DNA of 64,000 nt from Nitrospinales bacterium (GCA_965205835.1 OZ242182.1:2150759-2214758); one strand, 5' to 3'. Counted from the first letter of the stretch, positions 1 through 16,784 are shown. A program made the numbers and translations. Notes: a model not told the origin generated them from the letters alone.

Positions 1-2
1 TG

Positions 3-191
3 ATTATCAGGACCAGCGGAGAAAGAAGGATCAGTAATTTTCTTCTGTACCAGAGTGCTTATACCGAATTGCACTATAACAATGTGTTATGGCCGGACTT
101 TTCGGATGGTGATTTCCTGAACGCGATCATTGATTTTCAAAGCAGAGAGCGACGCTTTGGAATGACGCAAGGACAAATTGTCAAAGCCTGA
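3..191 (+). CDS. uppS: Undecaprenyl diphosphate synthase, 3' end (partial)
   Basis: Manual translation [25 protein letters not shown]...LWPDF...RERRFG..TGA matches the cis-prenyltransferase C-terminus; lies upstream of cdsA and dxr. Confidence 0.95.
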
Positions 192-282
192 CCTCAATCA
201 TTGACATTTCTATTGAGAAACCCGCATCCGTGATCTTAAACGTTCTCACAAGGATTCATAAAAACCGAACAGGACCTGACTC

Positions 283-1077
283 TTGAAACGCGTTGGCAGT
301 GGAGCCATAGGCATTCCTATTGTGCTGGGAATTGTGTTGTACGGCTCTTCTCTCCTGTTCTTTGGTTTTGTTGCGGCGATTGTTTTGCTCGCCAGCTACG
401 AATACTTTGCCATGACTTCTAATGTGGGTGTGGAGGGCTTTCCCATTGAGGGTGGGGTGTTGAGTTTCTTGCTTTTATTGGGTTTCTATCTGGGCGCCCA
501 GTTTTTACTTTTATTCGTAGTCCTGTTTCCCGTCATTTTGTTCGCGACTTGGTTCTTCAGGGAAAATAATGTGAAAGTGGCTTTGGATCCGATCGCTTAT
601 ACGGTTCTCGGGGTTTTTTATATTGCGGGATTGGGCGGGTACTTTCTGTTGATCCGTAATTTGGAAAGCGGAAGCCAGATGATCGTGTTCCTTCTGCTTC
701 TGATCTGGGCTGGTGATACGGTAGCCTATTACGTCGGCCAAAACCTGGGTAAACACAAACTCATGCCTGTGGTCAGCCCCAATAAGACGGTGGAAGGGGC
801 TATCGCCAATGTGCTGGGAACCCTTTTGGCCGCGTTAATCATCAAGTCATGGTTTTTTCAGGAATTTTCGCTAATGCATTGTTTGATTGTGGCCTTTATA
901 TGCGGTATCATCGGTCAGTTTGGGGATTTTTCGGAATCGCTGATAAAAAGAAATTGTCGGGTGAAAGATTCGGGCTCATTGATTCCCGGTCACGGCGGTT
1001 TTCTTGATCGTATTGACAGCCTGTTGTTCGCCGGCCCGGCTTTCTATTGTTATTACCAATTGTTCCTAGGGACATAG
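283..1077 (+). CDS. cdsA: Phosphatidate cytidylyltransferase
   Basis: Multi-TM protein with SPNKTVEG and KDSGSLIPGHGGFLDRIDS motifs. Confidence 0.95.
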   Translation: MKRVGSGAIGIPIVLGIVLYGSSLLFFGFVAAIVLLASYEYFAMTSNVGVEGFPIEGGVLSFLLLLGFYLGAQFLLLFVVLFPVILFATWFFRENNVKVALDPIAYTVLGVFYIAGLGGYFLLIRNLESGSQMIVFLLLLIWAGDTVAYYVGQNLGKHKLMPVVSPNKTVEGAIANVLGTLLAALIIKSWFFQEFSLMHCLIVAFICGIIGQFGDFSESLIKRNCRVKDSGSLIPGHGGFLDRIDSLLFAGPAFYCYYQLFLGT

Positions 1078-1100
1078 TCAAACCTCGTCAGTACAACTTC

Positions 1101-2255
1101 ATGAAAAAGATATCCCTTCTGGGCTCAACGGGTTCCATCGGCATCAACACGCTGGACGTTATAGAATGCTATCCCGAAAATTTTCAGATTTGTGCCCTCT
1201 CTGCCGGAAGCAATGTAGAACTATTTGCCCGTCAGATTCGAAAATTCAAGCCCGCGCTCGCCGCCTTGTTTGATTCCACCAAAGTGGATGCATTGAGGGA
1301 ACTGGTCGCCGATTTGGATGTGGAAATCGTTTTTGGTCAGGAAGGTTTGGTTTCCGTCGCTTCTTTTCTGGAAGCCGACCTGGTCGTTTCCGGAGTGGTA
1401 GGAGGTGCCGGACTGCTCCCGGCCCTTGCCGCACTCAAAGCTGGTAAGAACCTGGCGCTTGCCAATAAAGAAACGCTCGTCATTGCTGGTGAGCTAGTGC
1501 TGAAAGAAGCCGCGCTTACCAATACTAAAATTATTCCTATCGACAGCGAACACAGCGCGATTTTTCAGGCTTTGAACGGAGAGAAAACAGAACGCATCAA
1601 AAAAATTATCCTGACCGCATCCGGTGGACCTTTCAGAACTTTCAGCCTCAAGCAGATGGAAAACGTTACGGTGAGTGAGGCGCTCGATCATCCCAACTGG
1701 AGTATGGGAGCCAAAATCACCATCGACTCTTCCACCATGATGAACAAAGGCCTCGAATATATAGAAGCCAAATGGCTGTTTGGCGTGGAGACCAACGTCG
1801 AGGTCATCGTCCATGCGCAGAGTATCATTCACTCGATGGTCGAGTTTGTCGATACTTCCATCATGGCGCAGCTGGGTATTCCCGATATGCGGGTTCCCAT
1901 CGCTTACGCCCTGACTTATCCGGACCGGTTTGAAAGGGAACTGCCTTCTCTGGATTTGGCAGCAATGGGTGACCTGACCTTTGAGGCTCCCGACTTCGCA
2001 AGATTTCCCTGCCTGCAACTGGCTATGGATGCGATGGAAATGGGCCAGACCCTGCCAGCAGTCCTCAACGCCGCTAACGAAATCGCGGTGCAGGCGTTCC
2101 TCGATGAGCTGATCCCCTATAAAGATATCGCGGAAATCATTCGTATGGTTATGCAAAACCACCGCCCGGTTCCCCTGCGGGAACTGGAAGGTGTTCTGGA
2201 AGCCGACCGCTGGGCCCGTGAAGAAACCACAAAACTCATCACCGTCACCCATTAA
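1101..2255 (+). CDS. dxr: 1-deoxy-D-xylulose 5-phosphate reductoisomerase
   Basis: LGSTGSIG, LANKE, PIDSEH, HPNWSMGAKITIDS motifs; ATG at 1101 preferred over ORF-track start 1047. Confidence 0.97.
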   Translation: MKKISLLGSTGSIGINTLDVIECYPENFQICALSAGSNVELFARQIRKFKPALAALFDSTKVDALRELVADLDVEIVFGQEGLVSVASFLEADLVVSGVVGGAGLLPALAALKAGKNLALANKETLVIAGELVLKEAALTNTKIIPIDSEHSAIFQALNGEKTERIKKIILTASGGPFRTFSLKQMENVTVSEALDHPNWSMGAKITIDSSTMMNKGLEYIEAKWLFGVETNVEVIVHAQSIIHSMVEFVDTSIMAQLGIPDMRVPIAYALTYPDRFERELPSLDLAAMGDLTFEAPDFARFPCLQLAMDAMEMGQTLPAVLNAANEIAVQAFLDELIPYKDIAEIIRMVMQNHRPVPLRELEGVLEADRWAREETTKLITVTH

Positions 2256-2352
2256 CATGGGAGGCAAATAGCAATAGCTTTAATTGGCGAGACAGTTACC
2301 TCGGCATAAGGGGCTATTGCCATATTCCCACCGGGCGTTGCCCGGTTTATCT

Positions 2353-2844
2353 GTGAGATCATCTGATATTCGCATCGGCAATGGTTATGATGTGCACCGT
2401 CTGGTTGAGGGCAGAAAACTCATCCTCGGCGGAGTCGATGTTCCGCATTCGATGGGACTGGACGGGCACTCTGATGCCGATGCCTTGGCACACGCTTTGT
2501 GTGATGCCCTGCTGGGAGCTCTTGGGGCAGGGGATATCGGTATCTATTTTCCGGACACCGACCCGAAATGGAAAGGCATCTCCAGCTTGTTACTGCTCAA
2601 AGAGGCCATGCGCATGTGCCGAGAAAAAGGGTTTGAGCTTGCTAATGCCGATTCCGTGATCGTGGCGCAGAAGCCTAAACTTTCTCCGCATCTGCCGGAA
2701 ATGAAAAAGAATATTGCTGTGGCACTCGATGTAGAAACGAACCGGATAAATACTAAAGCCACTACAACTGAAAAGCTTGGGTTTGCCGGGCGGGAAGAGG
2801 GCATCTCCGCCTACGCGGTCGCTTTACTGGTAAAAAATGTTTAA
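2353..2844 (+). CDS. ispF: 2-C-methyl-D-erythritol 2,4-cyclodiphosphate synthase
   Basis: RIGNGYDVH, GHSDAD, KATTTEKLGFAGREEG motifs; GTG at 2353 is the likely start (uncertain). Confidence 0.95.
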   Translation: MRSSDIRIGNGYDVHRLVEGRKLILGGVDVPHSMGLDGHSDADALAHALCDALLGALGAGDIGIYFPDTDPKWKGISSLLLLKEAMRMCREKGFELANADSVIVAQKPKLSPHLPEMKKNIAVALDVETNRINTKATTTEKLGFAGREEGISAYAVALLVKNV

Positions 2845-4090
2845 CCTTAACGAGCGCGTCGTAATCACAGGAATTGGGTTGACCTCCCCAAACGGTAACA
2901 ACCTGAAAGAATTCCGACAAAACCTGCTGAACGGAGTTTCAGGGGCGCAACAATTCGAAACCCGCTATATGGGGAAGGTCCACGCCGGGGTCTGCGATTT
3001 TGATGAACTGAAATACCAAAAAAAAAAGGAACGCCGTCGCGGCACCCGTGTCGGTTCCGTTGCCATCTATTGTTCGCAGGAAGCTATTGCCGATGCCGGA
3101 ATCGATCTCGAAGCAATCGACCGCTCAAAAGTTGGTGTCTATCTCGGTGTGACTGAGCACGGCAATGTCGAGACCGAGAACGAAGTCTACAACATCAGCC
3201 AGTATGGCTATGATACCAAGTTCTGGTCGCACCATCATAACCCCCGCACGGTGTCCAACAATCCGGCCGGCGAAGTGACCTTGAACATGAAAATCACCGG
3301 GCCGCATTACACCATTGGCGCGGCCTGTGCCGCCGGGAATATGGGGGTCATTCAGGGCTTGCAGATGTTGCGGCTGGGCGAAGTCGATCTAGCGTTGGCG
3401 GGCGGGGTGTCTGAGAGTATCCACACCTTTGGCATCTTTGCCAGTTTCAAAAGCGAGGGGGCTTTGGCTGAGCACGAAGACCCGACCAAAGCCAGCCGTC
3501 CGTTCGATAAAAACAGGAACGGCATCGTCTGTTCAGAAGGTGGTGCCGTCTATACGCTTGAACGATTATCGGACGCGCAAAAACGTGGCGCAAAAATCTA
3601 CGGTGAAATCGTTGGTTACGCCATCAACTCCGACGCAATCGATTTCATCCTCCCTGATCCGGGCCGACAGGCTCAGTGCATACGCATGGCACTGGATAGA
3701 GCCGGACTCAAACCGGGCGACATCGATATCCTCAATTGCCATGCCACCGCAACGCAAATGGGAGATATTCAGGAGGCCAAAGCCATCCGCGAAGTGTTTG
3801 GCGATAACAGTAAAACGCGCATCAACAATACCAAAAGCTTTATCGGTCACACCATGGGTGCGGCGGGCACGCTGGAACTCTCGGGTAACCTGCCAGCTTT
3901 CGACGACCTCATGGTCCACCCCACCATCAACCTCGACAACCTCGATCCGGAATGCGCCTTGAACCACCTCGTCGCCAATAAACCGGAACAACTCTCCTCT
4001 GTCGACCTCATCATGAACAACTCGTTCGGCATGTTCGGCATCAATTCTGTCCTCATAGTGCGGAGTCCCTCCGCTGGGAACTTGCAATAA
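2837..4090 (+). CDS. Beta-ketoacyl-ACP synthase (FabF/FabB family), divergent
   Basis: Catalytic Cys (GAACAAG), His (NCHATAT), His (KSFIGHTMGAAG); SRPFD motif; start overlaps the ispF stop. Confidence 0.92.
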   Translation: MFNLNERVVITGIGLTSPNGNNLKEFRQNLLNGVSGAQQFETRYMGKVHAGVCDFDELKYQKKKERRRGTRVGSVAIYCSQEAIADAGIDLEAIDRSKVGVYLGVTEHGNVETENEVYNISQYGYDTKFWSHHHNPRTVSNNPAGEVTLNMKITGPHYTIGAACAAGNMGVIQGLQMLRLGEVDLALAGGVSESIHTFGIFASFKSEGALAEHEDPTKASRPFDKNRNGIVCSEGGAVYTLERLSDAQKRGAKIYGEIVGYAINSDAIDFILPDPGRQAQCIRMALDRAGLKPGDIDILNCHATATQMGDIQEAKAIREVFGDNSKTRINNTKSFIGHTMGAAGTLELSGNLPAFDDLMVHPTINLDNLDPECALNHLVANKPEQLSSVDLIMNNSFGMFGINSVLIVRSPSAGNLQ

Positions 4091-4227
4091 CTCTTCCTGG
4101 CAGGTGAACAGTCTTTTTTGCCCGTTGAGATATAACTATTTGCCTTCACGGCGAGCGGATTTAGGCTTGAAATTGGCCCTATCTTCTACTAAAATCGTGG
4201 TTACTGGAGACTTGGGAGAGGAAAGCA

Positions 4228-4491
4228 ATGACGATCGAAGAAGTACGGCAGATTATTCTTAATATCTTGGCCGATATTGCCCCGGATGAGGATATCAGCT
4301 CTATTGACGACAACACCAAATTGCGTGACCAGATCGACTTGGACTCGATGGATTTCCTCGATATCGTCATGGAACTCAGAAAACGCTTCAACATAGAAGT
4401 ACCGGAAAAGGATTATGAACATCTGGCTACTATGGCCGGTTGCATCACCTACCTGCAACCGCTTTTAAAAGACAGGCTCGCCTCCGGTTAG
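4228..4491 (+). CDS. Acyl carrier protein
   Basis: Small acidic protein with DLDSMDFLD phosphopantetheine attachment motif; GAGG SD upstream. Confidence 0.93.
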   Translation: MTIEEVRQIILNILADIAPDEDISSIDDNTKLRDQIDLDSMDFLDIVMELRKRFNIEVPEKDYEHLATMAGCITYLQPLLKDRLASG

Positions 4492-4622
4492 ATTTTCATC
4501 CCCCCCTTTATTGGTTCTAAGTTACATACATACCCAATTCAATTTATTGAAATCGAGAAAACCTTTGTTCGTCAGAAAGAATGGCTCATTCGATCCAACA
4601 TCACGCTGACTTCTGGTGAGAG

Positions 4623-4631
4623 TGGTATAAT
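4623..4631 (+). promoter_or_regulatory. Putative extended -10 promoter (TGGTATAAT) 6 nt upstream of ATG 4638
   Basis: Perfect TGnTATAAT; no SD before the ATG, compatible with a leaderless transcript. Confidence 0.45.
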
Positions 4632-4637
4632 CGATTT

Positions 4638-6020
4638 ATGCGTTACGACACTATTGTTATCGGTGCAGGGTTATCAGGATTGGCCGCTGGCATTCGCTTG
4701 GCCATGTTCGATAAAAAGGTCTGTATTGTTGAAAAACATGTTGAATTGGGCGGACTAAACTCTTTTTATGTGAGAAAAAACCGCACCTTCGATGTTGGGC
4801 TTCACGCCATGACCAACTTCACCCCCAAGGGTGTCCGCTCCTCGCCTTTGGGCAAACTTCTCAAACAACTGCGATTCAGTCATGACGACTTCCGCCTGTG
4901 CCAGCAGGAGATGTCGGAGATACGCTTCCCGGAGAAATCCCTCCGCTTCACCAATGACTTTGAGTTCATGCGCCAGGAAGTGGCGGAACAGTTCCCCGAC
5001 CAGATAGACGGATTCAACAAGCTGGTGGAAAAAATTCTAACTTTTGACGAACTGAACCTTGATGATAGCGACCATCTTTCTTCCCGGCCTGTGTTGGAAT
5101 CACTCATCAGCGACCCGGTGTTGATCGACATGTTGTTTTGTCCGCTTATGTATTACGGCAGTGCCCGTGAAGGCGACATGGATTTCTATCAGTTTGTTAT
5201 CATGTTCAAGAGTATTTTTGTGGAAGGATTTTCCAAGCCGGAAGGGGGCATGCGCTACATCCTCAACCTCCTGGCCGAGAGGTTCAAGAAACTGGGTGGT
5301 GATTTGAAGATGGGAAACGGGGTACAAACCATCAACGCCAGCAGGAGAACGGTTGCTTCGGTGACGCTGGAAAATGAGGAACAGTTGGCCACCGAGACAG
5401 TGCTTTCTTCCATGGGTTATGTTGAAACGCTGAACCGCTGCCAGCCCGCTCCCGACGAAGTGGGAAGTTGCGAAACCGGGCAGGTCTCGTTCATGGAGTC
5501 GCTTTTTGTGGTGGACAAGGAACCCTGCGACCTGGGTTATGACCAGAGCATTGTCTTTTTTTCTACCCGACAAAGGTTTGACTACAAGGTGCCGGAGGGC
5601 CTGGTTGATATTTCCAGTGGCGTATTGTGTTGTAGCAACAATTTCAAATACCCGAAACCGCTTGAAGAAGGGTTAATTCGGCTGACCAATCTGGCTAATT
5701 TCGGGAAATGGGACAATCTGGTGAGAAAAGATTATATTGCCGCAAAAAAAAAGTGGAGAAGCTGGGCCTTAGAGGAGTTATTCACATTTTTCCCAAATTT
5801 TAGCGATAATGTGGTATTTTTGGACTCGTTTACGCCTAGGACCATAAAGAAATATACAGGCCATATTAATGGGGCCGTCTATGGATCGCCGGAGAAGATT
5901 AAGAACGGAAGAACCCCTGTCAAAAACCTGTACATATGTGGGACGGATCAGGGGTTTTTAGGTATTGTCGGGGCCACATTAAGTGGAATATCCATGGTCA
6001 ACCTGCATCTTTTACGATAA
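4638..6020 (+). CDS. FAD-dependent oxidoreductase, phytoene desaturase (CrtI)/retinol saturase-like, copy 1
   Basis: N-terminal IGAGLSG..EKH..GG dinucleotide fold, FDVGLHAM, C-terminal TPRTIKKYT..GAVYG and NLYICG. Confidence 0.85.
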   Translation: MRYDTIVIGAGLSGLAAGIRLAMFDKKVCIVEKHVELGGLNSFYVRKNRTFDVGLHAMTNFTPKGVRSSPLGKLLKQLRFSHDDFRLCQQEMSEIRFPEKSLRFTNDFEFMRQEVAEQFPDQIDGFNKLVEKILTFDELNLDDSDHLSSRPVLESLISDPVLIDMLFCPLMYYGSAREGDMDFYQFVIMFKSIFVEGFSKPEGGMRYILNLLAERFKKLGGDLKMGNGVQTINASRRTVASVTLENEEQLATETVLSSMGYVETLNRCQPAPDEVGSCETGQVSFMESLFVVDKEPCDLGYDQSIVFFSTRQRFDYKVPEGLVDISSGVLCCSNNFKYPKPLEEGLIRLTNLANFGKWDNLVRKDYIAAKKKWRSWALEELFTFFPNFSDNVVFLDSFTPRTIKKYTGHINGAVYGSPEKIKNGRTPVKNLYICGTDQGFLGIVGATLSGISMVNLHLLR

Positions 6021-6032
6021 TCAACCGCATCA

Positions 6033-7481
6033 ATGAATGAACCAAAGAGAGACTGGTTGAAGGGTGTTTTTTCGGCTTACGATACGGTCGTGATTGGGAG
6101 CGGTCTGGCGGGAATGACGTCGGCCAATCTTCTGGCCAAGCTTGGACACAAGGTTTTGCTGGCCGAACATCATTATAATATGGGGGGCATGGCCACTTGG
6201 TTCAAACGCAAGGGCGGGCATATTATGGATATCTCCCTGCACGGGTTCCCTCGTGGGATGATTAAGACCCTCAGAAAATACTGGACCCAAGACATCTCGC
6301 ACAGGGTCATTCAGCTCAAAAAAATTCGTTTTGACAACCCACAGTTCTCTCTCAACACCTCTTTCGACAAAGTAGATTTCACCCGTATTCTGCGTGAGCG
6401 TTTCGGTATCCTGAAAGAGGTGGTCGACGATTTCTTTTTGACCGTCCGCGACATGAATTTTTATGACGAAGTGGTCATGACTACCCGCGAGCTTTTTGAA
6501 AAATACTTTCCCGGTCGCACTGATGTCTGGCGTTTTCTCATGGAGCCGATCACCTATGCCAATGGTTCCACCCTTGATGATCCGGCAATAACTTACGGCA
6601 TTGTGTTTTCCAACTTTATGGACAAGGGAGTTTTTACCTACCAAGGTGGCACCGATCATTTGATTAAGGAAATGAAGAAGGAGCTGTTGAAAAACGGCGT
6701 AGACATTCGCACTCACTGCATGGTCGAAAAAATTTATGTGGACGATAAAACCGTACAGGGTGTCCGCGTCAATGGTCAGGATATTCAGTGCAAGTCGGTA
6801 CTTTCCAACTCCAACCTGTTGACCACCATACAACAGCTGACTGGCGAGGAACATTTTGATGCTGAATTTATCAAAGAGGTCAAAAAAGTTCGGCTCAATA
6901 ACTCCAGTTGCCAGGTTTATATGGGAATTAAAACGGGTGAAACCGCGCCGAATGTAGGCGATCTGCTGTTCTCGTCTGTGGCGGATGAATACTGCACAGA
7001 TCAAATATTGAGTAAAGATGTTACCAGCCGCACGTTTTCATTTTATTATCCGAGAATCCGCCCGGGTACCAATCGCTACTCCATCGTCTCTTCGACCAAC
7101 GCCCGCTACCAGGACTGGGCCAACCTGACCGAGTCCCAATACAAAAAAGACAAGCACGATCTGGAGCAAACAACTCTCGATGTGCTGGAAAAATATGTTC
7201 CGGGCATACGCAAAAAAGTGGATCATGTGGAAGCCTCAACCCCAAAAACTTTCAAGCGTTATACCTTGCACCCCTCGGGCACTTCGTTTGGAACCAAGTT
7301 TGAAGGACTCAAAATAAGCCGGGATCTCCCTAAACAGATCAATGGGCTGTTCCATGCCGGCTCGGTGGGGATCATCATGTCGGGCTGGCTGGGAGCGGCG
7401 AACTATGGGGTCATTGTCGCCAACGAAGCCGATAAATTCCTCCGCCAGTTGAGTCCGAGCTTGGTGACGGCATCGGCCTGA
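6033..7481 (+). CDS. FAD-dependent oxidoreductase, phytoene desaturase (CrtI)/retinol saturase-like, copy 2
   Basis: IGSGLAG..EHH..GG, DISLHGF, C-terminal [15 protein letters not shown] and GLFHAG. Confidence 0.85.
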
Positions 7482-7528
7482 ACACCTTTCTTCTTTCCTG
7501 AAATTCAATTTATATATAACATAGCGCA

Positions 7529-8272
7529 ATGGAATTTGACTTTAAAGGGCAAACGGCTCTGGTCACTGGCGGTACGCGCGGCATAGGCCGGGCTATTTCC
7601 GAGGCGTTTCTTGAAACCGGAGCAAAAGTCATCGCTACTTATCTGGGCAACGATGAAGAGGCGGAAAAATTCAAACGCGCTAATGCCCGCCACGCCGACT
7701 GTCTCGATATTCATAAATTCGATGTCACCGACTATGAAGCGGTGGAAAAGTTTTATAGAGCTATTGAAGCGAAATATAAAAACCTTCATATCCTCGTTAT
7801 TAGTTCGGGCATTCGGTCTGATTCCATTGTTGGCATGATGAGAGCGGAAGATTGGAACCGGGTCATCGATACCAATCTGACGGGAACGTTCAATTTATGC
7901 AAGCTGGCTGTACAGGCAATGATGCGCCAGAGGTACGGACGGATCATCACTTTAACGTCTCCCGTTGGCAGGTTCGGGTTTGCTGGTCAGGCCAATTACG
8001 CCGCGTCAAAGGCCGGACAGGTGGCATTCACACAATCCCTTTCCAAGGAAGTGGCGAGTCGGGAAATAACAGTGAATTGCGTATCGCCAGGCTTCATTGA
8101 TACGGATTTCATTGGCGATCTGCAGGAAGAGCAAAGAAAATCCTATAAAGACCAGATTCCCCTGAAACGTTTCGGGACTCCGGAAGATGTCACCTACCCG
8201 GTGCTGTTTCTGGCCTCAAAAGAATCTTCTTACATCACGGGCTCGGTGCTAGAGGTAACCGGGGGACTATAG
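7529..8272 (+). CDS. fabG: 3-oxoacyl-ACP reductase (FabG-like SDR)
   Basis: TGGTRGIG, GQANYAASK, VNCVSPGFIDT. Confidence 0.88.
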   Translation: MEFDFKGQTALVTGGTRGIGRAISEAFLETGAKVIATYLGNDEEAEKFKRANARHADCLDIHKFDVTDYEAVEKFYRAIEAKYKNLHILVISSGIRSDSIVGMMRAEDWNRVIDTNLTGTFNLCKLAVQAMMRQRYGRIITLTSPVGRFGFAGQANYAASKAGQVAFTQSLSKEVASREITVNCVSPGFIDTDFIGDLQEEQRKSYKDQIPLKRFGTPEDVTYPVLFLASKESSYITGSVLEVTGGL

Positions 8273-8273
8273 A

Positions 8274-8699
8274 ATGCCACAGGATTTTCTTCAATACATT
8301 CCCCATCGTCCTCCTTTCCTGTTTGTCGATCAGGTGCTTGAAGAAAGTGACGATACCATTAAGACGGAAAAAAAGATCGATCCGAAAGAACCTTTTTTTG
8401 AGGGACATTATCCTGGAAGACCGATCATGCCGGGAGTATTGATCTTTGAATCTATTTTTCAGTCTGGTGCAATCATGATGGGCAAACGCATCGCCAGGGA
8501 AGGCAGGATTCCTGTTCTCACCCGGGTCAACAACATCAAACTCAAGCACGTCGTCCATCCCGGAGATACCATGCAGATTGAGGTGACCCTCAAAGACCTG
8601 GTCAGCAGTGCTGCTTATATGACGGGAAAAGCCAGCGTCAACGGTAAAACCGCGGTCACCCTGGAATTCTCCGCCATGTTGGTTGAGGAGACACAATGA
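8274..8699 (+). CDS. fabZ: 3-hydroxyacyl-ACP dehydratase (FabZ family)
   Basis: [10 protein letters not shown] and [19 protein letters not shown] hot-dog fold motifs. Confidence 0.88.
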
Positions 8700-9499
8700 G
8701 TTTTTTGGATTTGGAAAACAAAAGCATCTTAGTGACTGGAGTGGCAAACAGGAAAAGTGTTGCCTGGCATATCGCAAAGACGCTGGAAGAAGAAGGCGCA
8801 AAGGTCATTTACAGCGTCCGCTCCGAAGACCGCAAAAAATCACTGGGAAAACTTCTGGCAGGTAAAACCGTCGTCGTTTGTGATGTGGAAAAAGAAGAAG
8901 AGGTTGAACGTTTAAGGGCTCAGGTTGCTGAACACCGCAAGGTTCTGCACGGACTCGTCCACTCGATAGCTTTTGCCAATTATTCAGAGGGCTGGAAGCC
9001 GTTTCATGAAACGCCGAAAAAGGATTTTCTACAGTCCATCGATATCAGTTGTTATTCCCTGATCCATTTCGCCAACGTTTTTAAGGACTTGTTTCACCAG
9101 CAAGCTTCTGTGGTCACGGTATCGATTTCGACTACGCGAATGGCGGCGGAAAATTATGGCTATATGGCCCCGGCCAAGGCAGCACTCGATTCCACTCTCT
9201 GTTTCCTGGCAAAATCGTTCAGTGCTTTTTCTAAAGTTCGGTTCAACTCCATCAACCCCGGCCTGCTCAAGACATCAGCGTCAGCGGGCATCCCCGGTTA
9301 TGTCGACTCCTACCTGCATGCCGAAAAAGCAACGTTGAGGAAAAAGGCTCTGACCACCCAGGAGGCGGCCAATGCGGCGGTATTTTTATTGAGCGAACGC
9401 GCCAGCGGTATCAACGCTCAGGGCCTGGTTCTTGATGCCGGAATGTCCATCAACTATTTTGATCAGGAATTGATCAAACCCGCTCCCGCCTCTTCGTGA
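8696..9499 (+). CDS. fabI: Enoyl-ACP reductase (FabI family)
   Basis: [26 protein letters not shown] (YxxMxxxK). Confidence 0.87.
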
Positions 9500-9599
9500 T
9501 ATTCATGCTTTGGAGAAATATGTCATATTCAACCAACTCGGACATCATCTCCATAGTATGATACAACGGTCAAAGACTCGCTGGAGATGACTAAATCTT

Positions 9600-10946
9600 A
9601 TGAATAACTTTTTCGCCACTTTTGCCCAATTGGTGTGGGGGCCTTGGTTGCTCTTGCTTTTGTTGGGCACCGGTTTCTGGCTGACGATTCGGCTTCGGGG
9701 GATTCAATTCCGCAGTCTTTTCTATGCTTTGCGTTTGACATTTTCGAAGGAGCGGCAAGGACAAGGCGATATCTCTCACTTTGCCTCTTTGATGACAGCT
9801 TTGGCCGCAACGGTCGGGACTGGTAATATAGCCGGGGTCGGCACAGCCGTTGCCTTGGGCGGGCCTGGTGCTATCTTCTGGATGTGGGTCACGGGTCTGG
9901 TGGGCATGGCGACAAAATACAGCGAAGGTTTTCTGGCTGTTAAATTTCGCAGGGTCAATGACAAAGGCGAAATATCTGGCGGGCCGATGTATTACCTTGA
10001 AGAGGGTCTGAAAAGTAAATGGCTGGCAATGTGTTTTGCCGTGTTCGGTGCTTGCGCGGCTTTCGGTATTGGCAATATGGTGCAGGCTAATACTACCGCT
10101 ATCGCGGTGGAAGACACCATCGGGGCCAGTAAAATGGTCGTAGGCACACTCCTCGCGCTTTTAATCGGACTGGTGGTGATTGGCGGACTTAAACGAATTG
10201 CCGAAGTCGCTTCCTATCTGGTTCCGTTCATGGTCGCGATTTATTTTGCTGGTGCCTTGATCGTTATCTTCAATCACCTGGACCAACTGGGTTCAGGAAT
10301 GAAGCTGGTGTTTGAGCATGCTTTTACGGGAACTGCCGCGACCGGAGGGTTTGTGGGAGCTTCTGTAGCGAATTGCGTTCGCTACGGTGTGGCCCGCGGA
10401 CTTTTTTCCAACGAATCCGGCATGGGGAGCGCGCCCATCGTTGCCGCCGCCGCAAGAACCAATCATCCCGGCAAACAGGCCTTGGTTTCCATGACCGGAA
10501 CTTTTATCGATACCTTGATTGTTTGCTCCATCACCGCGATTGCGATCAGTTCTACCGGGGTATGGACCTCAGGTGCGACCGGCGTGGCGTTGACCGTTCA
10601 GGCTTTTACCGCAGGGCTTCCCATGTGGGGGGAACATCTGATCGCTCTGGGTACCATTACCTTTGCTTTTTCCACCATTCTTGCCTGGGAATATTATGGT
10701 GAAAAGTGCTTTGAATATATTTTTGGGGGGAAATATACCCCTTTATATCGTTACGCTTGGGTGATTTTTGTGTTTGTCGGTGCCCAAATCGAACTGGAAC
10801 TGGTTTGGAATCTTTCAGACGCGCTGAACGCCTTGATGGCCGTGCCCAACTTGATTGGGCTCATCCTTTTAAGCGGAGTTTTGTCCCGTGAGACCAAAAC
10901 TTACGAAACGGGGGTCCGTGATGGTTCTATTAGTAAGCTCGACTGA
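9600..10946 (+). CDS. Sodium:alanine/glycine symporter (AGCS family)
   Basis: ATVGTGNIAGV, GGPGAIFWMW, GGPMYY, RGLFSNESGMGSAP. Confidence 0.93.
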   Translation: MNNFFATFAQLVWGPWLLLLLLGTGFWLTIRLRGIQFRSLFYALRLTFSKERQGQGDISHFASLMTALAATVGTGNIAGVGTAVALGGPGAIFWMWVTGLVGMATKYSEGFLAVKFRRVNDKGEISGGPMYYLEEGLKSKWLAMCFAVFGACAAFGIGNMVQANTTAIAVEDTIGASKMVVGTLLALLIGLVVIGGLKRIAEVASYLVPFMVAIYFAGALIVIFNHLDQLGSGMKLVFEHAFTGTAATGGFVGASVANCVRYGVARGLFSNESGMGSAPIVAAAARTNHPGKQALVSMTGTFIDTLIVCSITAIAISSTGVWTSGATGVALTVQAFTAGLPMWGEHLIALGTITFAFSTILAWEYYGEKCFEYIFGGKYTPLYRYAWVIFVFVGAQIELELVWNLSDALNALMAVPNLIGLILLSGVLSRETKTYETGVRDGSISKLD

Positions 10947-12391
10947 TGAAAAACACTTGGGAGCCGCCGATCGTGTACAAAGTCTGCCTAACTAAAAGCT
11001 TCACTATTACTGTGCTCTTCTTTCTGATTTTTATCACTGCGGTTAGCCCTGCAGGACAAGCCTATGGTGAGATAGAGTTGAGTCTTTTCCCCAATACACT
11101 TGACAAGTTTTCTGTGGATGGCCAATTTCATGTATTTTCCCGGGACGATAGTAACCCGTCTTACGGAGCGTCGGCGGATACAAGGGGACGGGCGGAAACG
11201 ACTTTTGGGGAGACAGTGGCCAAGCTGGGTTTCACGTTTGAGAAAAGGTTGCCGTGGGCGGTTTTGGAAGGCCGTGTCAGCGGGGTATTAATGTCCACTA
11301 TCAACGCGGATGTATATGGAATTGCCGATAACGAAAGCCAGGGTGATCTCAATGAAGGCTTTTTGCTCCTCAAAAAAATCAATCGATCCCCTATAGACAT
11401 CAAGGTCGGTCGCCAGAATATCTTTATTGAAAAATCCTTTATTTCTGGAGATGCGAACCCTGAAGACGCTGCGATATGGATTTCCGCACATAAAAGTTTT
11501 CCGTTTGCCGTAAGAGTAGATGGAGATTTTGGAAGGTTAAAAACCCTTGCTTTCTGGGCCGATACGGAACTTTACTCGCAACAGAGTGATCAGCGAGAGG
11601 CCGGAAAAAGAGGAAAGGAGGGTGTCTCCTTTACGGGAATAAATATGCATTACGATTTTTCAGAAACCGCCTATTTATATGGGGGATATTACAGGAAAAT
11701 AGATGAGAGCAATATTACCTTTGCCAACTTTTCTCCCGGAGGGAAAGACCTGTTTTCTGAAAATAACACTAATGCGTTTGATATAGGGCTTGACGCTGCG
11801 GCTGGGTCTTTTCACTTTGCTGGAGAATTTGTTTACCAAACGGGAGATGCCGGACGCCTCGCAGGACAGAAATTAAGTCGGAACGCCCATGCCGGTTTTG
11901 CTCAGGCTCGATATAGTTTCAACCATTCCGTAAACCCTTACCTGAAATTCATGTACGTGTTCTTTTCCGGGGACTCGGACCTTGAAGACGATGAGGCAGA
12001 AGATTATGACCCCATGTTTATCACCAGCAGGGTTTGGAATGAATGGTTGATCGGGCAACATGTTGGTGAGGTTCAACTTCCGAATACGAATAAGTATGCT
12101 TTCATTGTAGAAACCGGCTTTTCGCCAATGCCGAGAATGCAAATAGCTTTTATGTTTCTAAAGCATTATCTGGATGAGCGGTACCTCGGAGTCTCAAGGG
12201 GAAGAAAACTCCTGAGTAGCGATGATTATGCGGATGAATGGAATTTGCTGATCGACTACGAAATCAATAACCATGTGTTCGCCCATGTTGGGGCTGGCTA
12301 TGTTATTCCGGGAAAGGCGGCGGAAGAATTTTTTGACAACAATGACAACAATAATTTTTTCACCCAGGTGTGGTTAAAGTTTCATTTTTAA
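10946..12391 (+). CDS. Putative outer-membrane beta-barrel (alginate-export-like porin)
   Basis: Hydrophobic N-terminal segment, KVGRQ motif, alternating aromatic beta-strands, C-terminal WLKFHF; TGATG coupling with the symporter gene. Confidence 0.65.
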   Translation: MKNTWEPPIVYKVCLTKSFTITVLFFLIFITAVSPAGQAYGEIELSLFPNTLDKFSVDGQFHVFSRDDSNPSYGASADTRGRAETTFGETVAKLGFTFEKRLPWAVLEGRVSGVLMSTINADVYGIADNESQGDLNEGFLLLKKINRSPIDIKVGRQNIFIEKSFISGDANPEDAAIWISAHKSFPFAVRVDGDFGRLKTLAFWADTELYSQQSDQREAGKRGKEGVSFTGINMHYDFSETAYLYGGYYRKIDESNITFANFSPGGKDLFSENNTNAFDIGLDAAAGSFHFAGEFVYQTGDAGRLAGQKLSRNAHAGFAQARYSFNHSVNPYLKFMYVFFSGDSDLEDDEAEDYDPMFITSRVWNEWLIGQHVGEVQLPNTNKYAFIVETGFSPMPRMQIAFMFLKHYLDERYLGVSRGRKLLSSDDYADEWNLLIDYEINNHVFAHVGAGYVIPGKAAEEFFDNNDNNNFFTQVWLKFHF

Positions 12392-12691
12392 AAGCTCAAA
12401 AAAATTAACCAATCTTGGAGCTTGCTTATCAGGCGACTTCCTGCCAAGCCAGATAAGAGCCCGCTTTAGACACCTCTTAAAAGAGGAGACCTCTAAGAGA
12501 GAGGAAGTGCTGTTAAACCAACCCACCCACTTTTTTTATGTAGAAGTCTCAGTCCGGTTTTTTGTGTCAGTCAGCCTTTTTTGCGAGGCATATGGCAGTC
12601 CTGACAAGCATTTGCAACCTGTCATTTTTTAAGAGTTTTCTGGTGGTGGGGCAGGAGAGTGCCATGCCGATAGATTCCGGTGGTTCGCTGG

Positions 12692-13729
12692 TCAGAATTG
12701 TTTGAGAAAGCGCAGGTCGTTTTCAAAAAACAAGCGAATATCGTTGATGCCGTACTTCAGCATGGCGATGCGTTCGATGCCGAGTCCAAAAGCAAACCCG
12801 GCCCATTTTTCTGAATCGTAGTTGACGCATTTTAATACTGCCGGGTCGACCATTCCACAGCCGAGGATTTCCAGCCACCCGGTTTGTGAACAAACCCGGC
12901 ACCCTTTGCCGCCGCAAATCACGCATTGAATATCAACTTCCGCGCTGGGGCAGGTGAAGGGGAAGAAACTGGGGCGGAACCGGATTTTTGTATTTTCTCC
13001 GAATACTTCCTGGAGGAAAATATTCATAATGCCTTTGAGGTGGCCGAAAGAAACATTTTCATCGACCATAAGTCCTTCGATTTGATGGAACATTGGCGTA
13101 TGCGAGACATCGGAATCGCAACGGTAGACTTTTCCCGGCGCGATAATGCGCAATGGCGGTTTGCGGTTTTCCATCACATGAATCTGCACCGGTGAAGTGT
13201 GGGTCCGCAAAACAGTTCCCCCTTCAACATAAAAGGTGTCCTGCATATCGCGTGCGGGGTGGTCTCTGGGAATGTTCAAGGCTTCGAAGTTATAATAGTC
13301 CGTTTCAATTTCGGGTCCCTCTTCTACCTGGAATCCTAGTCCCATAAAAATAGTGGTGATCTCCTCCATCACCTGGGTAATGGGGTGCAGGGTTCCGGTG
13401 GTTTCTCTTCGTCCTGGCAAAGTGGTGTCAAAGGTTTCACTTTTTGAAGGTGGGCGTTTGGCGGATTTGCTCAGTTCTTCCTGCTTTTCTCCCAGCAGGC
13501 TCTCGATATGCTGCTTGAAGTCATTGATGAGTTTACCCTGTTGCCGTTTCTCTTCCGGAGAAGCCTGGCGCAGGCCTTTCATGAGAGCCTGAACACAGCC
13601 TTTTTTCCCGAGGAAATCTATACGAAGTTGTTTGAGGGATTCTTGATCTGAAATAGCACTGATGCGAGAGTCGAAATCTTGCTGGTGCTTTTCGGTGGTT
13701 TCGATCATGAGTGTGCTAAATAAAGGCAA
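12692..13729 (-). CDS. pheS: Phenylalanyl-tRNA synthetase alpha subunit
   Basis: HPARDMQDTFY, LRTHTSPVQ, FRPSFFPFT, GFAFGLGIERIAMLKYG; true start may be ~13708. Confidence 0.97.
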   Translation of the reverse strand: MPLFSTLMIETTEKHQQDFDSRISAISDQESLKQLRIDFLGKKGCVQALMKGLRQASPEEKRQQGKLINDFKQHIESLLGEKQEELSKSAKRPPSKSETFDTTLPGRRETTGTLHPITQVMEEITTIFMGLGFQVEEGPEIETDYYNFEALNIPRDHPARDMQDTFYVEGGTVLRTHTSPVQIHVMENRKPPLRIIAPGKVYRCDSDVSHTPMFHQIEGLMVDENVSFGHLKGIMNIFLQEVFGENTKIRFRPSFFPFTCPSAEVDIQCVICGGKGCRVCSQTGWLEILGCGMVDPAVLKCVNYDSEKWAGFAFGLGIERIAMLKYGINDIRLFFENDLRFLKQF

Positions 13730-13774
13730 AAAGTTTGCCCGTGAAAAACCTTTTAGCTCAAAGGGTATTACTTG

Positions 13775-14143
13775 CTAGCCCCGCGCCTGGCGGAGTTGGG
13801 TGCGCGCGGTTTTGGTCAGGGCTTTGAAGGAGTCTTGATTGTGAATCGCCATATCAGAGAGAACCTTTCGGTCGAGTTCAATGTCGGCTTTTTTCAGTCC
13901 ATACATGAACTGACTGTAGTTCAGGCCTTCAGCCCTGACTGCGGCGTTGATCCGGGCAATCCAGAGTCGGCGAAACTCGCGCTTGCGGTTTTTTCGATCG
14001 CGATAAGCGTAGCACAAGCCATGCTCAACAGCTTCCCGGGCTTTGCGGAAAGCGGTGCTTCGTACACTGCGATAGCCTTTGGCCAGTTTTAAGATTTTTT
14101 TTCGTCGTTTGCGGGATACCGTTCCGTTTACTGCTCGTGGCAT
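13775..14143 (-). CDS. rplT: 50S ribosomal protein L20
   Basis: [32 protein letters not shown]. Confidence 0.97.
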
Positions 14144-14178
14144 TTCAAAACTCTCCTTGTATTCAGTTGACCTGTGGT

Positions 14179-14373
14179 TCAGTAAGGCAACAAAGTCTTA
14201 ATGCGCTTTGCGTCTCCAGTTGCCATAATGCTGGCTTTTCGCAGGTTTCTTTTTCTTTTGGTGGTTTTACTTGTCAGAATATGGCTGGTGAAAGCGCTAT
14301 TCCGGCGAATTTTTCCGGTGCCTGTTTTGCGAAACCGCTTGGCGGCACCTCTATTGGTTTTCATCTTCGGCAT
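14179..14373 (-). CDS. rpmI: 50S ribosomal protein L35
   Basis: [18 protein letters not shown]. Confidence 0.97.
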
Positions 14374-14393
14374 TTTAAATTAACTCCGTCTAT

Positions 14394-15011
14394 TTATTTT
14401 TGCTCGGGTTTCTCGGCGGGTACTACTGCTGGTTCCGTGACAGGCACTTTTTCCGGTTGTGCAACCGGTTTTGTTTTAACCGAGCCTCCTTTTTTGGTTT
14501 TGGAGTTTTTGGGAGTCAGAATCATGACCAAGGTACGCCCTTCCTGCTTGGCCTGTTGTTCAATGACCGCTGTCTCTTTGGTTGCATCGGCAACCCGCTC
14601 CAGCACTTTCATTCCGAATTCGCGATGCACGATCTCGCGGCCCTTAAAGAAAATAACCACTTTAGCTTTGTCACCGTTTTCCAGAAACCGTTGCACATTC
14701 CGCAATTTGAAATCAAAATCATGCTGATCGGTATTGGGCCGAAACTTGACTTCCTTGACATGAATAATTTTTTGTTTTTTCTTAGCTTCGTGCGCCTTTT
14801 TGCTGGCCTTGTATTTGTGCTTGCCGTAATCCATGATGCGGCAAACAGGTGGATTTGAGTTAGGGGAAACTTCTACAAGATCCATATCCTGATCTTGAGC
14901 CATGCTCAGAGCCTCTTCTGTGGGCAGAGTGCCAATGGGTTCTCCGTCATCACCAATCACGGACACTTCCCGTACCCGAATCATCTTATTGATACGCTGT
15001 TTTTTATTAAT
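14394..15011 (-). CDS. infC: Translation initiation factor IF-3 (ATT start)
   Basis: PPVCRIMDYGK, KEVKFRP motifs; the frame extends upstream of ATG 14984 to ATT at 15011 (INKKQRINKM), preceded by an in-frame TAA, with GGAGGT SD 9 nt upstream. Confidence 0.93.
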   Translation of the reverse strand: MNKKQRINKMIRVREVSVIGDDGEPIGTLPTEEALSMAQDQDMDLVEVSPNSNPPVCRIMDYGKHKYKASKKAHEAKKKQKIIHVKEVKFRPNTDQHDFDFKLRNVQRFLENGDKAKVVIFFKGREIVHREFGMKVLERVADATKETAVIEQQAKQEGRTLVMILTPKNSKTKKGGSVKTKPVAQPEKVPVTEPAVVPAEKPEQK

Positions 15012-15035
15012 TTAAATACAACCTCCCATAAAAAA

Positions 15036-16784
15036 TTAATTTTCAGATTCAATCAGCCGGGAATCTATGCCGGATTTCAGTTCGTTCAGAAAGGTCTCAA
15101 AATCGAGGGTCCGGGTTTCTTTGAAACGCCGCTTGCGAACACCCAGAGTCTGGGATTCAACTTCTTTGTCCCCTAAAACAATCATATAGGGGATTTTCTG
15201 TAGTTGAGCCTCGCGTATTTTGAACCCAATCTTCTCATTCCGCAAGTCTTTTTCTACCCGAATATCCGATTCTTCAAGCCGTTGGGCCAGTTTTTCAGCA
15301 TATTCGGCGTGATTATCGGTGATCGTGCAAAGAATGACCTGCACCGGGGCCAACCAGAGCGGGAACGCCCCGGCATAATGCTCGATCAAACAACCAAAAA
15401 AACGCTCCAGCGAGCCCATTAAGGCGCGGTGGAGCATGATTGGCTGATGGCGTTGCCCATGTTCCTCAATATAACTTATGTTAAAGCGTTCGGGAAGGTT
15501 AAAATCGACCTGCACCGTCGAAACCTGCCAATATCGGTTCAGGCTATCTTTGATTTTGATATCGATTTTCGGGCCATAGAAAACCCCTTCGCCTGGGTCG
15601 ACCTCGAAATCCAGCTTTTTGTTGTTCAGCGCATTTTCCAAAGCTTTTGTCGCGCTTTCCCAATCCTCATCCGCGCCGACATATTTGTCCGGCTTGGTGC
15701 TCAAATAAATTTTGTATTCAAAGAATCCGAACGACCGCAGAATATAAACGATCAAATTGAGAACCTTTGTGATTTCCTCTTCAATCTGCGACGGACGGCA
15801 GAACAGGTGAGCGTCATCCTGCGTGAATCCGCGTACGCGTAAGAGACCGTGCAGAACTCCGGATCGTTCGTAACGGTAAACTGTTCCCAACTCGCCAAAC
15901 CGCATTGGTAAATCACGGTAACTCCGCAACTTGCTTTTGTAAATCTGGATATGGAAGGGGCAGTTCATCGGCTTCATGACATACTCTTTGCCCTCGATAT
16001 CCATATTGGAGAACATGTTTTCCTTATAGAATTCGGTATGGCCGCTGGTCTTCCACAGGTCGATCTTCGCGGCATGCGGGCTGATCACCATCTCGTAACC
16101 GTTTTTGAAATGTTCCTTCTTCCAGAAATCTTCTATCAGGTGGCGAACGCGCGCGCCTTTCGGGTGCCAGAGAATCAGTCCGGGTCCGATTTCGTCTGAT
16201 ACAGAAAACAGGTCGAGCTCTTTACCGAGTTTGCGGTGGTCGCGCTTCTTGGCTTCTTCCAACCTTTTAAGGTGGGTTCTCAATTCCTTTTCCGTGTTCC
16301 AGGCGGTGCCATAAATTCTTTGCAGAACCGGGTTGCGCTCGTCTCCGCGCCAGTAGGCGGATGAAGTGTGCAGAAGCTTGAAAGCCTTGATTTGTCTGGT
16401 CGACTCCACATGTGGTCCACGGCAAAGGTCGGACCAGTCGCCTTGTGAGTAAACGGAGATAGGCTCGTCTACAGTATCGATGATCTCCACTTTGAACTTC
16501 TCGCCCATGTCGGTGAATTTTTTTATGGCTTCATCGCGGGGAATTTCAGTGCGCACGATCTCTAAATCTTTCGCGGCAATTTCTTTCATGCGTTTTTCGA
16601 TTTTTTCCAGGTCTTCGGGAACGAAAGCCTCGTCGCGTGAGAAGTCGTAATAGAAACCGTCTTCGATCACAGGGCCAATGGTAACCTGGGTACCGGGGAA
16701 CAGTTCCTGAACCGCCTGTGCCATCAAATGCGCGCAACTGTGCCGTAGCGTTTCCAAGTCTACCTGGTTTGGATTGTTCGACAT
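15036..16784 (-). CDS. thrS: Threonyl-tRNA synthetase (lacks the N-terminal TGS domain)
   Basis: RHSCAHLMAQAV, DLCRGPH, RDHRKLG, KPMNCP, FYGPKID. Confidence 0.97.
   Translation of the reverse strand: MSNNPNQVDLETLRHSCAHLMAQAVQELFPGTQVTIGPVIEDGFYYDFSRDEAFVPEDLEKIEKRMKEIAAKDLEIVRTEIPRDEAIKKFTDMGEKFKVEIIDTVDEPISVYSQGDWSDLCRGPHVESTRQIKAFKLLHTSSAYWRGDERNPVLQRIYGTAWNTEKELRTHLKRLEEAKKRDHRKLGKELDLFSVSDEIGPGLILWHPKGARVRHLIEDFWKKEHFKNGYEMVISPHAAKIDLWKTSGHTEFYKENMFSNMDIEGKEYVMKPMNCPFHIQIYKSKLRSYRDLPMRFGELGTVYRYERSGVLHGLLRVRGFTQDDAHLFCRPSQIEEEITKVLNLIVYILRSFGFFEYKIYLSTKPDKYVGADEDWESATKALENALNNKKLDFEVDPGEGVFYGPKIDIKIKDSLNRYWQVSTVQVDFNLPERFNISYIEEHGQRHQPIMLHRALMGSLERFFGCLIEHYAGAFPLWLAPVQVILCTITDNHAEYAEKLAQRLEESDIRVEKDLRNEKIGFKIREAQLQKIPYMIVLGDKEVESQTLGVRKRRFKETRTLDFETFLNELKSGIDSRLIESEN

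Follow-up and report, generated by a model that had tools for sequence, protein, structure and literature searches.

What does a cluster of fatty-acid synthesis genes that includes two flavoproteins of a carotenoid-enzyme fold produce, and for which pathway? This question is raised by a 64,000-nucleotide stretch of the genome of a Nitrospinales bacterium (GCA_965205835.1 OZ242182.1:2150759-2214758; hereafter the window), in which seven open reading frames (ORFs) on the + strand occupy positions 2837-9499. In order, they encode KS, a divergent FabF-like beta-ketoacyl-acyl carrier protein (ACP) synthase (2837-4090); a dedicated ACP of 87 amino acids (4228-4491); two flavin adenine dinucleotide (FAD) flavoproteins of the CrtI fold that match Amino_oxidase/NAD_binding_8, designated FP1 (4638-6020) and FP2 (6033-7481); a FabG-type 3-oxoacyl-ACP reductase (7529-8272) and a FabZ-type 3-hydroxyacyl-ACP dehydratase (8274-8699), both second copies; and a FabI-type enoyl-ACP reductase (ENR; 8696-9499). 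An earlier note on this DNA had named the same seven co-oriented genes, and each assignment was upheld by Pfam and NCBIfam models with curated cut-offs. From KS through FabZ the intergenic gaps are 137, 146, 12, 47 and 1 nt, and FabZ and FabI overlap by 4 nt, which confirms that the last five genes lie less than 50 nt apart or overlap. Our answer, which we hold to be only a little better than an even bet, is that this cassette is a dissociated (type II) counterpart of the Pfa synthase and feeds unsaturated acyl chains to an olefin pathway.

Is the cassette conserved as a unit? At E<=1e-30, FP2 has 179 representative relatives, and 594 of 597 candidate stretches from species-representative genomes encode an FP2 relative, giving at least 594 genome matches. 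We compared the best 80 FP2 loci with the window proteins and found that the cassette recurs in Nitrospinota, Dehalococcoidia, Nitrospirales, Phycisphaerae and Planctomycetia. All seven genes were present in the same order at 13 of these 80 loci (7 Nitrospinota, 5 Dehalococcoidia and 1 Nitrospirales), and six genes, without FabG, at a further 3 (Phycisphaerae, Planctomycetia). Because the seven-gene order is kept at 13 loci from three phyla, the arrangement is not due to chance. At least one cassette partner adjoins FP2 at 51 of the 80 loci, and FP2 stands alone at 29, mostly in Planctomycetaceae and Pirellulaceae and in some cases on short contigs. Outside Nitrospinota, identity to the window proteins is 63–72% for KS, 62–67% for FP2, 60–67% for FabI and 47–55% for FP1; KS orthologues in the comparison genomes are 63–93% identical. 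Five of five Planctomycetota genomes with a solitary FP2 encode exactly one FP1 elsewhere in the genome (47–53%), one cassette-type KS (67–70%, with other KS paralogues at <=38%) and one cassette-type FabI (64–67%) in addition to a second FabI-like gene at ~30%. Across phyla, FP1 and FP2 are thus conserved together with the KS and ACP of the cassette rather than with genes for carotenoids. An Sfp-type phosphopantetheinyl transferase (PPTase) follows FabI at 14 of the 80 loci, and FabD lies beside the cassette at 2. Three Dehalococcoidia loci (L043, L059 and L082) have a tandem duplication, KSIII-KS-ACP-KSIII-KS (KSIII, ketoacyl synthase III), in which both KS copies are 66–72% identical to the window KS. 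Two FP2-bearing loci (L048 and L055) are labelled 'Candidatus Kuenenia sp.'; we did not accept them as anammox evidence, as the label is doubtful and the genome behind L048 measures 8.5 Mb.

The flanks of the cassette suggest where its product may go. Eight long loci were annotated and all 80 were then screened, and at 12 of the 80 the cassette adjoins at least one gene for a KSIII, an AMP-ligase, a 3-beta-hydroxysteroid dehydrogenase-type reductase or an alpha/beta hydrolase (OleA-, OleC-, OleD- and OleB-like, respectively). The flanking KSIII scores 448–454 bits on PRK09258 (cut-off 285). The flanking ligase scores 668 bits on PRK09274 (cut-off 478), and 575 and 533 bits on models of the olefin beta-lactone synthetase OleC (cut-offs 900 and 850). 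The flanking reductase scores 410 bits on NF042422, 2-alkyl-3-oxoalkanoate reductase (cut-off 580). These are the four protein types of the OleABCD pathway of Xanthomonas, Shewanella and Micrococcus (PMC7158056), and proteins resembling all four are also encoded in the window's genome (2.45 Mb, 98.65% complete), with one orthologue each of the flanking KSIII, ligase and reductase. Here their genes are split over three loci outside the window, none of them linked to the cassette, and the earlier note missed this ole connection. The OleA-like KSIII (C1:989685-990830) reaches 454 bits on PRK09258 against the cut-off of 285, and its best sequence matches in the Protein Data Bank (PDB) are 3s21, 3row, 4ku5, 5vx* and 6b2* at 237–242 bits, with FabH entries at <=78 bits. 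The PDB listing names the 3s21/3row/4ku5 group 3-oxoacyl-[ACP] synthase III, and we take these entries to be Xanthomonas campestris OleA. The protein keeps the active-site Cys and the Glu of an LEPST motif, which presumably corresponds to OleA Glu117, and so the genome's KSIII is predicted to be an OleA-type thiolase distinct from FabH. Directly downstream is the gene for an OleB-like hydrolase of 288 amino acids (C1:988825-989691). OleB resembles haloalkane dehalogenases; the libraries hold no OleB model, and this protein scores 174 bits on a haloalkane dehalogenase model, against 241. The OleC-like ligase (C1:1333832-1335451) reaches 685 bits on PRK09274 against 478, and for this ligase and the OleD-like reductase (C1:717981-718976) OleC and OleD are the best-named matches. 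Directly upstream of the OleA-like/hydrolase pair, and overlapping the OleA-like ORF, is a gene for an MsbA-like ABC exporter (C1:990733-992502; 568 bits, cut-off 602), which may be a candidate for exporting or flipping a lipid product.

If the cassette supplies an olefin pathway, what supplies the pathway where the cassette is absent? The polyunsaturated hydrocarbon C31:9 consists of Pfa-made 16:4n-3 chains joined by OleABCD, and Geobacter bemidjiensis has its pfa and ole genes in tandem (PMC4882568). Shulse and Allen reported that pfa-like clusters co-occur with ole genes and suggested that they feed olefin synthesis (PMC3098273). We scored FP2 (E<=1e-80), OleC-like proteins (E<=1e-80) and PfaA (TIGR02813, E<=1e-100) in 151 Planctomycetota genomes, and found FP2 in 30, OleC in 54 and PfaA matches in 30 (22 of them above the cut-off). 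Among the 54 OleC-bearing genomes, 29 have FP2, 24 have a PfaA match without FP2, and a single one (G075) has neither; among the 97 lacking OleC, one has FP2 (G008), five have a PfaA match without FP2 and 91 have neither. OleC thus accompanies FP2 in 29 of 30 genomes, with G008 the exception. The sole genome with both FP2 and a PfaA match (G153, counted as FP2-bearing) owes the latter to a 370-bit partial match, under the cut-off, in another polyketide synthase (PKS). In 14 of these 29 genomes FP2 and OleC share a contig and lie no more than 10 kb apart, and pfaA and oleC likewise adjoin in many PfaA-bearing Planctomycetota.

A similar association was seen closer to the window. Across 92 Nitrospinota genomes FP2 is present in 76 and OleC in 73; 68 have both, 8 FP2 only, 5 OleC only and 11 neither. 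Both genes are present in families f1–f5, where FP2 is near-universal (75 of 80 genomes), and both are absent from f6, f7 and f9. The sole sampled Nitrospinota genome with PfaA above cut-off, G240 (family f8, 1.4 Mb, 87% complete), has OleC and no FP2; in it, one acyl supplier has been naturally exchanged for the other inside Nitrospinota. The window's genome has no match to TIGR02813, the model for multidomain PfaA (KS-MAT-ACPn-KR). When 36 OleC-like proteins were placed in a quick maximum-likelihood tree, for which the careful search was unfinished, the 13 Pfa-linked OleC and that of G075 form one clade (SH-aLRT 99), and all 22 cassette-linked OleC, from Nitrospina, Nitrospirales, Phycisphaerae and Planctomycetia, fall on the other side, such that the label changes once. 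The tree thus suggests that the ole genes form two lineages, one accompanied by Pfa and one by the cassette as acyl supplier, and this pattern supports functional coupling.

The Pfa synthases of Shewanella and Geobacter bemidjiensis (PMC4882568, PMC3098273) resemble the cassette in more than their position beside ole genes and their role as the alternative in ole-bearing genomes without it (24 of the 54 OleC-bearing Planctomycetota, and G240). They too combine KS, ACP, ketoreductase, dehydratase and enoyl reductase activities, and in other phyla the cassette also shares with them a PPTase and an acyltransferase. The cassette differs in being made of monofunctional type II proteins, with no PfaA-type protein, a FabI-type enoyl reductase and two CrtI-fold flavoproteins that are absent from Pfa; no FabA-like dehydratase/isomerase domain was recognised in it.

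What weighs against olefin synthesis as the destination is, in the first place, where OleC is missing. It was not found at E<=1e-60 in three of five cassette-bearing genomes, namely two Dehalococcoidia and one 'Deltaproteobacteria' metagenome-assembled genome (MAG), and a Dehalococcoidia class sample of 101 genomes included three with FP2 and none with OleC. Because the cassette is present without OleC, the olefin pathway cannot be its only sink. Dehalococcoidia cassettes carry an OleA-type KSIII, and what they make may not be an olefin. Discordant genomes were also seen in the other samples (the 8 FP2-only and 5 OleC-only of the 92 Nitrospinota, G008 and G075), many of them incomplete MAGs. 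With its single label change, the OleC tree reduces the complementarity of cassette and Pfa to approximately one evolutionary split plus G240, and thus to few independent events. In the window's genome the ole-like genes are 0.8–1.4 Mb away from the cassette, the OleC-like ligase scores 563 and 540 bits against equivalog cut-offs of 900 and 850, and the OleD-like reductase scores 342 bits on the OleD model against an equivalog cut-off of 580. We found no olefin report for Nitrospina in the literature searched, most subscription journals lying outside it.

Could the cassette instead make a specialised lipid? Its product would then be polyunsaturated or very-long-chain (hydroxy) fatty acids for membranes, or long-chain ketones made with OleA alone, and the ole link would be lineage-specific and secondary. 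Such an outcome, which we consider unlikely though worth keeping in view, would accommodate the Dehalococcoidia that have the full cassette with an OleA-like KSIII, PPTase and FabD and lack OleC (0 of 2 cassette-bearing genomes, as well as the class sample), the OleC-lacking 'Deltaproteobacteria' MAG, and the unlinked ole-like genes of the window's genome. The five Planctomycetota with a PfaA match and no OleC indicate that such acyl suppliers can have other sinks, and (omega-1)-hydroxy fatty acids of C28-C35 occur in planctomycetes (PMC6995999, PMC7534041). This account is opposed by the presence of OleC in nearly all FP2-bearing Planctomycetota and in 68 of the 76 FP2-bearing Nitrospinota, by the 12 loci at which cassette and ole-like genes adjoin, and by the mutual exclusion of cassette and PfaA among ole-bearing genomes.

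The second matter that counts against an olefin-dedicated cassette is its relationship to housekeeping fatty-acid synthesis. The genome has a canonical plsX-fabH-fabD-fabG-acpP-fabF-rnc operon at C1:1.023-1.029 Mb, with FabF (647 bits) and AcpP (121 bits) both above cut-off at C1:1.023-1.025 Mb, and another FabZ at C1:2004723-2005091, in agreement with the earlier note's view that the cassette is not the usual housekeeping set. The cassette shares with housekeeping type II fatty-acid synthesis (FASII) its folds, catalytic residues and reaction cycle, and differs from it in sequence (KS 34% and 30% identical to the two other KS of the genome, which has three stand-alone KS genes in total; FabG 42% identical to the canonical FabG; FabZ 36% identical to the other copy), in its private ACP and two flavoproteins, and in its patchy distribution across genomes. 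The third of these KS genes, FabF-like, is 4.5 kb past the window end (C1:2219286-2220518; L007:7281-8531) and scores 455 bits, under the 494 cut-off; the two ORFs after it (L007:8608-8976 and 9420-10865) have no NCBIfam match.

The family scores show how far the cassette proteins stand from their housekeeping namesakes. KS has both ketoacyl-synt N and C domains and does not reach the FabF equivalog level (333 bits on the fabF model, cut-off 493.75), and it scores 237 bits on the polyketide KS model PRK07103 (cut-off 445). The ACP has a PP-binding match of 36 bits and weak ACP matches in the PDB sequence search; its best ACP model gives 43 bits against cut-offs of 66–71, below the AcpP equivalog level. 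FabI, at 176 bits against cut-offs of 362–391, is the third cassette protein to fall under the housekeeping equivalog cut-offs, and its best PDB sequence matches are all enoyl-ACP reductases. FabG scores 281 bits on TIGR01830, below the equivalog cut-off of 298, and 255 bits on the subfamily model NF009466, above 222; FabZ passes NF000582 (123 bits, cut-off 113). The translations contain KS Cys164/His302/His338, ACP Ser40 in a DSM motif, FabZ His45/Glu59 and FabI Tyr154-x6-Lys161, which we take to be the catalytic residues from what is known of these families. Within window positions 1-16800, Pfam and NCBIfam found no FabD, FabH, PlsX, radical-SAM, crtB or second KS gene, in line with the earlier note; with this single KS, the KS and chain-length-factor pair of aryl-polyene and type II PKS systems was not found either.

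KS, ACP, FabG and FabZ therefore have second copies in the genome, and FabI does not: we found no second ENR, the further FabI-model matches reaching <=48 bits (the best of them a glucose-dehydrogenase-like short-chain dehydrogenase/reductase), and no FabV. FabK was considered as a hidden ENR and rejected, as the NMO-family match is a dihydroorotate dehydrogenase (PyrD). Because the cassette FabI is the only recognisable ENR, it must also serve bulk synthesis, and judged by these searches part of the cassette appears to be housekeeping. The description of the cassette as self-contained must accordingly be given up, since in addition FabD has to be borrowed and no Sfp-type PPTase was found in the genome.

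These results also bear on whether the whole cassette is a housekeeping branch, in which KS acts like FabB, FP1 and FP2 replace a FabA/FabM isomerase, and ordinary monounsaturated membrane fatty acids are made without O2. The shared FabI would fit this, as would the near-universal presence of the cassette in five Nitrospinota families and the dehydratase complement of the genome, which is FabZ-type only with no FabA recognised. The position of KS is in keeping with it as well: KS lies downstream of cdsA and dxr and is translationally coupled to ispF (2284-2844), the stop of which its start overlaps by 8 nt. However, a housekeeping branch would not need a private ACP or, elsewhere, a private Sfp-type PPTase and FabD; FP2 occurs in just 30 of 151 Planctomycetota and in 3 of the 101 Dehalococcoidia; cassette-bearing Planctomycetota keep their second FabI-like gene; and the genome has two membrane desaturase-family genes for aerobic desaturation. 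The co-distribution with ole genes and the exclusion of PfaA would be left unexplained. We consider such a branch improbable.

The third difficulty lies with the flavoproteins, on which any unsaturated product would depend. FP1 and FP2 share 22% identity. AlphaFold (AF2) models of both are confident (predicted local distance difference test, pLDDT, of 89.8 for FP1 and 88.6 for FP2), and that of FP2 matches CrtD (4rep, template-modelling score (TM) 0.71), plant phytoene desaturase (PDS; 5mog, TM 0.69) and 4dgk (TM 0.57), which places it in the FAD-binding CrtI/PDS fold. The flavoproteins are only 11–17% identical to these solved relatives. In the PDB sequence search both gave weak matches to CrtD, CrtI and 3ka7 (<=36 bits), and the ESM Atlas clusters closest to them, which offered no clue to function, consist of unnamed proteins from Verrucomicrobiota and Planctomycetota labelled 'phytoene desaturase family'. 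A complex prediction for FP2 with FP1 scored 0.00 in both runs, which counts neither for nor against binding.

Are FP1 and FP2 isoprenoid enzymes? As desaturases, isomerases or saturases of carotenoids, squalene or other polyprenyl chains, they would be sited beside dxr and ispF as genes of the methylerythritol phosphate (MEP) pathway, which lie directly upstream in Nitrospinota, and they have a CrtI/CrtD/PDS-like fold, with the FAD-binding GR2/amine-oxidase fold of CrtI, CrtD, CrtISO and PDS recognised in FP2. Their best family models are indeed CrtD (77 bits for FP1 and 96 for FP2, cut-off 550), CrtISO (74 and 94 bits, cut-off 587) and the CrtI family TIGR02734 (57 and 81 bits, cut-off 238), but all of these scores are far below the cut-offs, and no CrtI-family protein above cut-off is encoded anywhere in the genome. 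The adjacency to isoprenoid genes is confined to Nitrospinota loci (ispF near FP2 at 7 and dxr at 6 of the 80 loci), whereas adjacency to KS, ACP, FabZ and FabI spans phyla, with fatty-acid enzymes as partners and no crt context. The anammox proteins kuste3336 and kuste3607, which are likened to FP1 and FP2 by description only, failed to replace CrtI in Escherichia coli (PMC4790861). An isoprenoid substrate is therefore very hard to credit.

Gene fusions speak to the partners of the flavoproteins. A search for longer relatives, together with one representative relative from the E<=1e-30 set, yielded four predicted fusion proteins, all from metagenome contigs. Two join FP1 to FP2: P0274 (988 amino acids), in which FP1 is matched by residues 1-463 (45% identity) and FP2 by the C-terminal half (63% identity, with 97% of FP2 covered), and P0275 (1020 amino acids). 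P0122 (625 amino acids) joins FP2 to FabZ, and P0277 (950 amino acids) joins FP2 to a FabI-like domain. The order of parts in all four is that of the cassette genes, and no isoprenoid enzyme is among the fusion partners. Each fusion is a single-member cluster consisting of one predicted protein, such that a sequencing or gene-calling artefact is possible, and this too tempers the reading of the cassette as a Pfa counterpart. If real, the fusions would connect FP1 with FP2, and both flavoproteins with dehydration and reduction of acyl-ACP. In a Dehalococcoidales MAG, a further flavoprotein of the amine-oxidase family, the third at that locus (521 amino acids), is encoded just downstream of the cassette/PPTase/FabD block, on the opposite strand (L082:12592-14157, −).

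Has such a cassette been described before? Rattray et al. 2009 proposed that phytoene-dehydrogenase-like (PD-like) genes in FASII clusters make polyunsaturated fatty acids or polyunsaturated hydrocarbons, and made no connection to oleABCD (PMC2649909). In Desulfotalea psychrophila, which makes C31:8 and C31:9, there are PD-like genes in FASII clusters and no PKS route (PMC2649909). The D. psychrophila genes DP1860, DP2405 and DP2406, and kuste3336 and kuste3607 of Kuenenia stuttgartiensis, encode amine-oxidase/CrtI-like flavoproteins among KS, ACP and FabZ genes, as in the window (Rattray 2009, Javidpour 2016, Dietl 2023). They are put forward as acyl-chain desaturases, an activity that is only proposed, and are likened to FP1 and FP2 by description. 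Their clusters differ in also containing radical-SAM enzymes, methyltransferases, several KS paralogues, a membrane protein and a CoA-ligase, with FabI elsewhere. The anammox candidate ladderane cluster, with its B12/radical-SAM genes, KS pair and amxFabZ beside a PD-like gene, is likewise set apart from the cassette by the lack of a radical-SAM gene or second KS in window positions 1-16800. The earlier note's term 'undescribed' therefore holds in part: we found neither a characterisation of these flavoproteins nor a cassette-ole link in the literature searched, to which most subscription journals did not belong, and yet an acyl role for PD-like genes in FASII clusters had already been proposed in 2009 (PMC2649909).

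How might the cassette work as a Pfa counterpart that feeds olefin synthesis? In the route that we infer from its gene content and distribution, catalytic steps, flavoprotein substrate and product alike, the private ACP would be phosphopantetheinylated, here presumably by the cell's general PPTase and in other phyla by the Sfp-type PPTase of the cassette. Housekeeping FabD would supply malonyl units, and KS, FabG, FabZ and FabI would run the elongation cycles. FP1 and FP2 would act on ACP-bound enoyl or acyl intermediates to keep, shift or introduce C=C bonds, a task that falls in PfaC to FabA-like dehydratase/isomerase domains. Isomerisation is usually beyond FabZ-type dehydratases, and methylene-interrupted chains need two distinct double-bond operations; for these reasons the flavoprotein chemistry that we favour as probable is an isomerisation or dehydrogenation that depends on flavin, takes place during elongation and uses no O2. 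Flavoenzymes that act on acyl chains, among them UfaD of furan fatty-acid synthesis, the Propionibacterium polyenoic fatty-acid isomerase and Helicobacter FabX, which acts on acyl-ACP, are precedents for desaturation or isomerisation of C=C bonds. To our knowledge, none of the three genes has a private KS and ACP for company or ole genes as neighbours, and these enzymes are compared with FP1 and FP2 by function only. The unsaturated, probably polyunsaturated chain would then pass to the OleA-like thiolase and on to the OleD-, OleC- and OleB-like enzymes, with two chains joined head to head, and the Ole pathway would be the main sink in Nitrospina, Planctomycetota and Nitrospirales. An unsaturated acyl chain, the product that the earlier note had proposed, remains the best reading of the sequence evidence.

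Downstream of the cassette are genes for an amino-acid carrier and an outer-membrane protein, and dxr and cdsA, as identified with Pfam and NCBIfam, are upstream of ispF. A promoter and terminator scan of positions 1-12600 gave 16 and 13 sites, compared with 12.9 and 15.8 in shuffled sequence, and was uninformative for operon limits. Farther along the window, a 322-amino-acid ORF (24077-25045) has a partial match of 42 bits to the squalene-hopene-cyclase C-terminal repeat, but a cyclase would have to be longer. Adjoining genes at 54507-56287 encode an AAA_21 ATPase and a DUF4276 protein, in the patch of lowest GC (0.41); the pair resembles a small acquired module, possibly defence-related.

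Together, these results suggest a larger possibility, one that we put forward tentatively and as clearly less than an even chance: that the cassette is a third route to methylene-interrupted polyunsaturated acyl chains, besides O2-dependent desaturases and Pfa, namely a dissociated type II synthase in which two CrtI-fold flavoproteins set the double bonds on ACP-bound intermediates without O2. The n-C31:9 hydrocarbon is common in planctomycetes (PMC7534041, PMC6995999), and how it is synthesised in bacteria without Pfa has been an open question since 2009 (PMC2649909), for which the cassette stands as a specific candidate, one that is small and can be expressed. If true, such a route would explain C31:9 in pfa-less planctomycetes, Verrucomicrobia and Desulfotalea. 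Placement of double bonds on acyl-ACP by FP1 and FP2 would be new enzymology for the CrtI fold, with consequences for how the phytoene-dehydrogenase-like genes in candidate ladderane clusters are viewed, and engineered hosts could be given a compact gene set with which to make polyunsaturated chains or olefins. Nitrospina, which is widespread in the sea as a nitrite oxidiser, would become a source of polyunsaturated long-chain hydrocarbons that had gone unrecognised, and a lipid biomarker would be predicted for marine nitrite oxidisers and for several further lineages that are abundant in the ocean.

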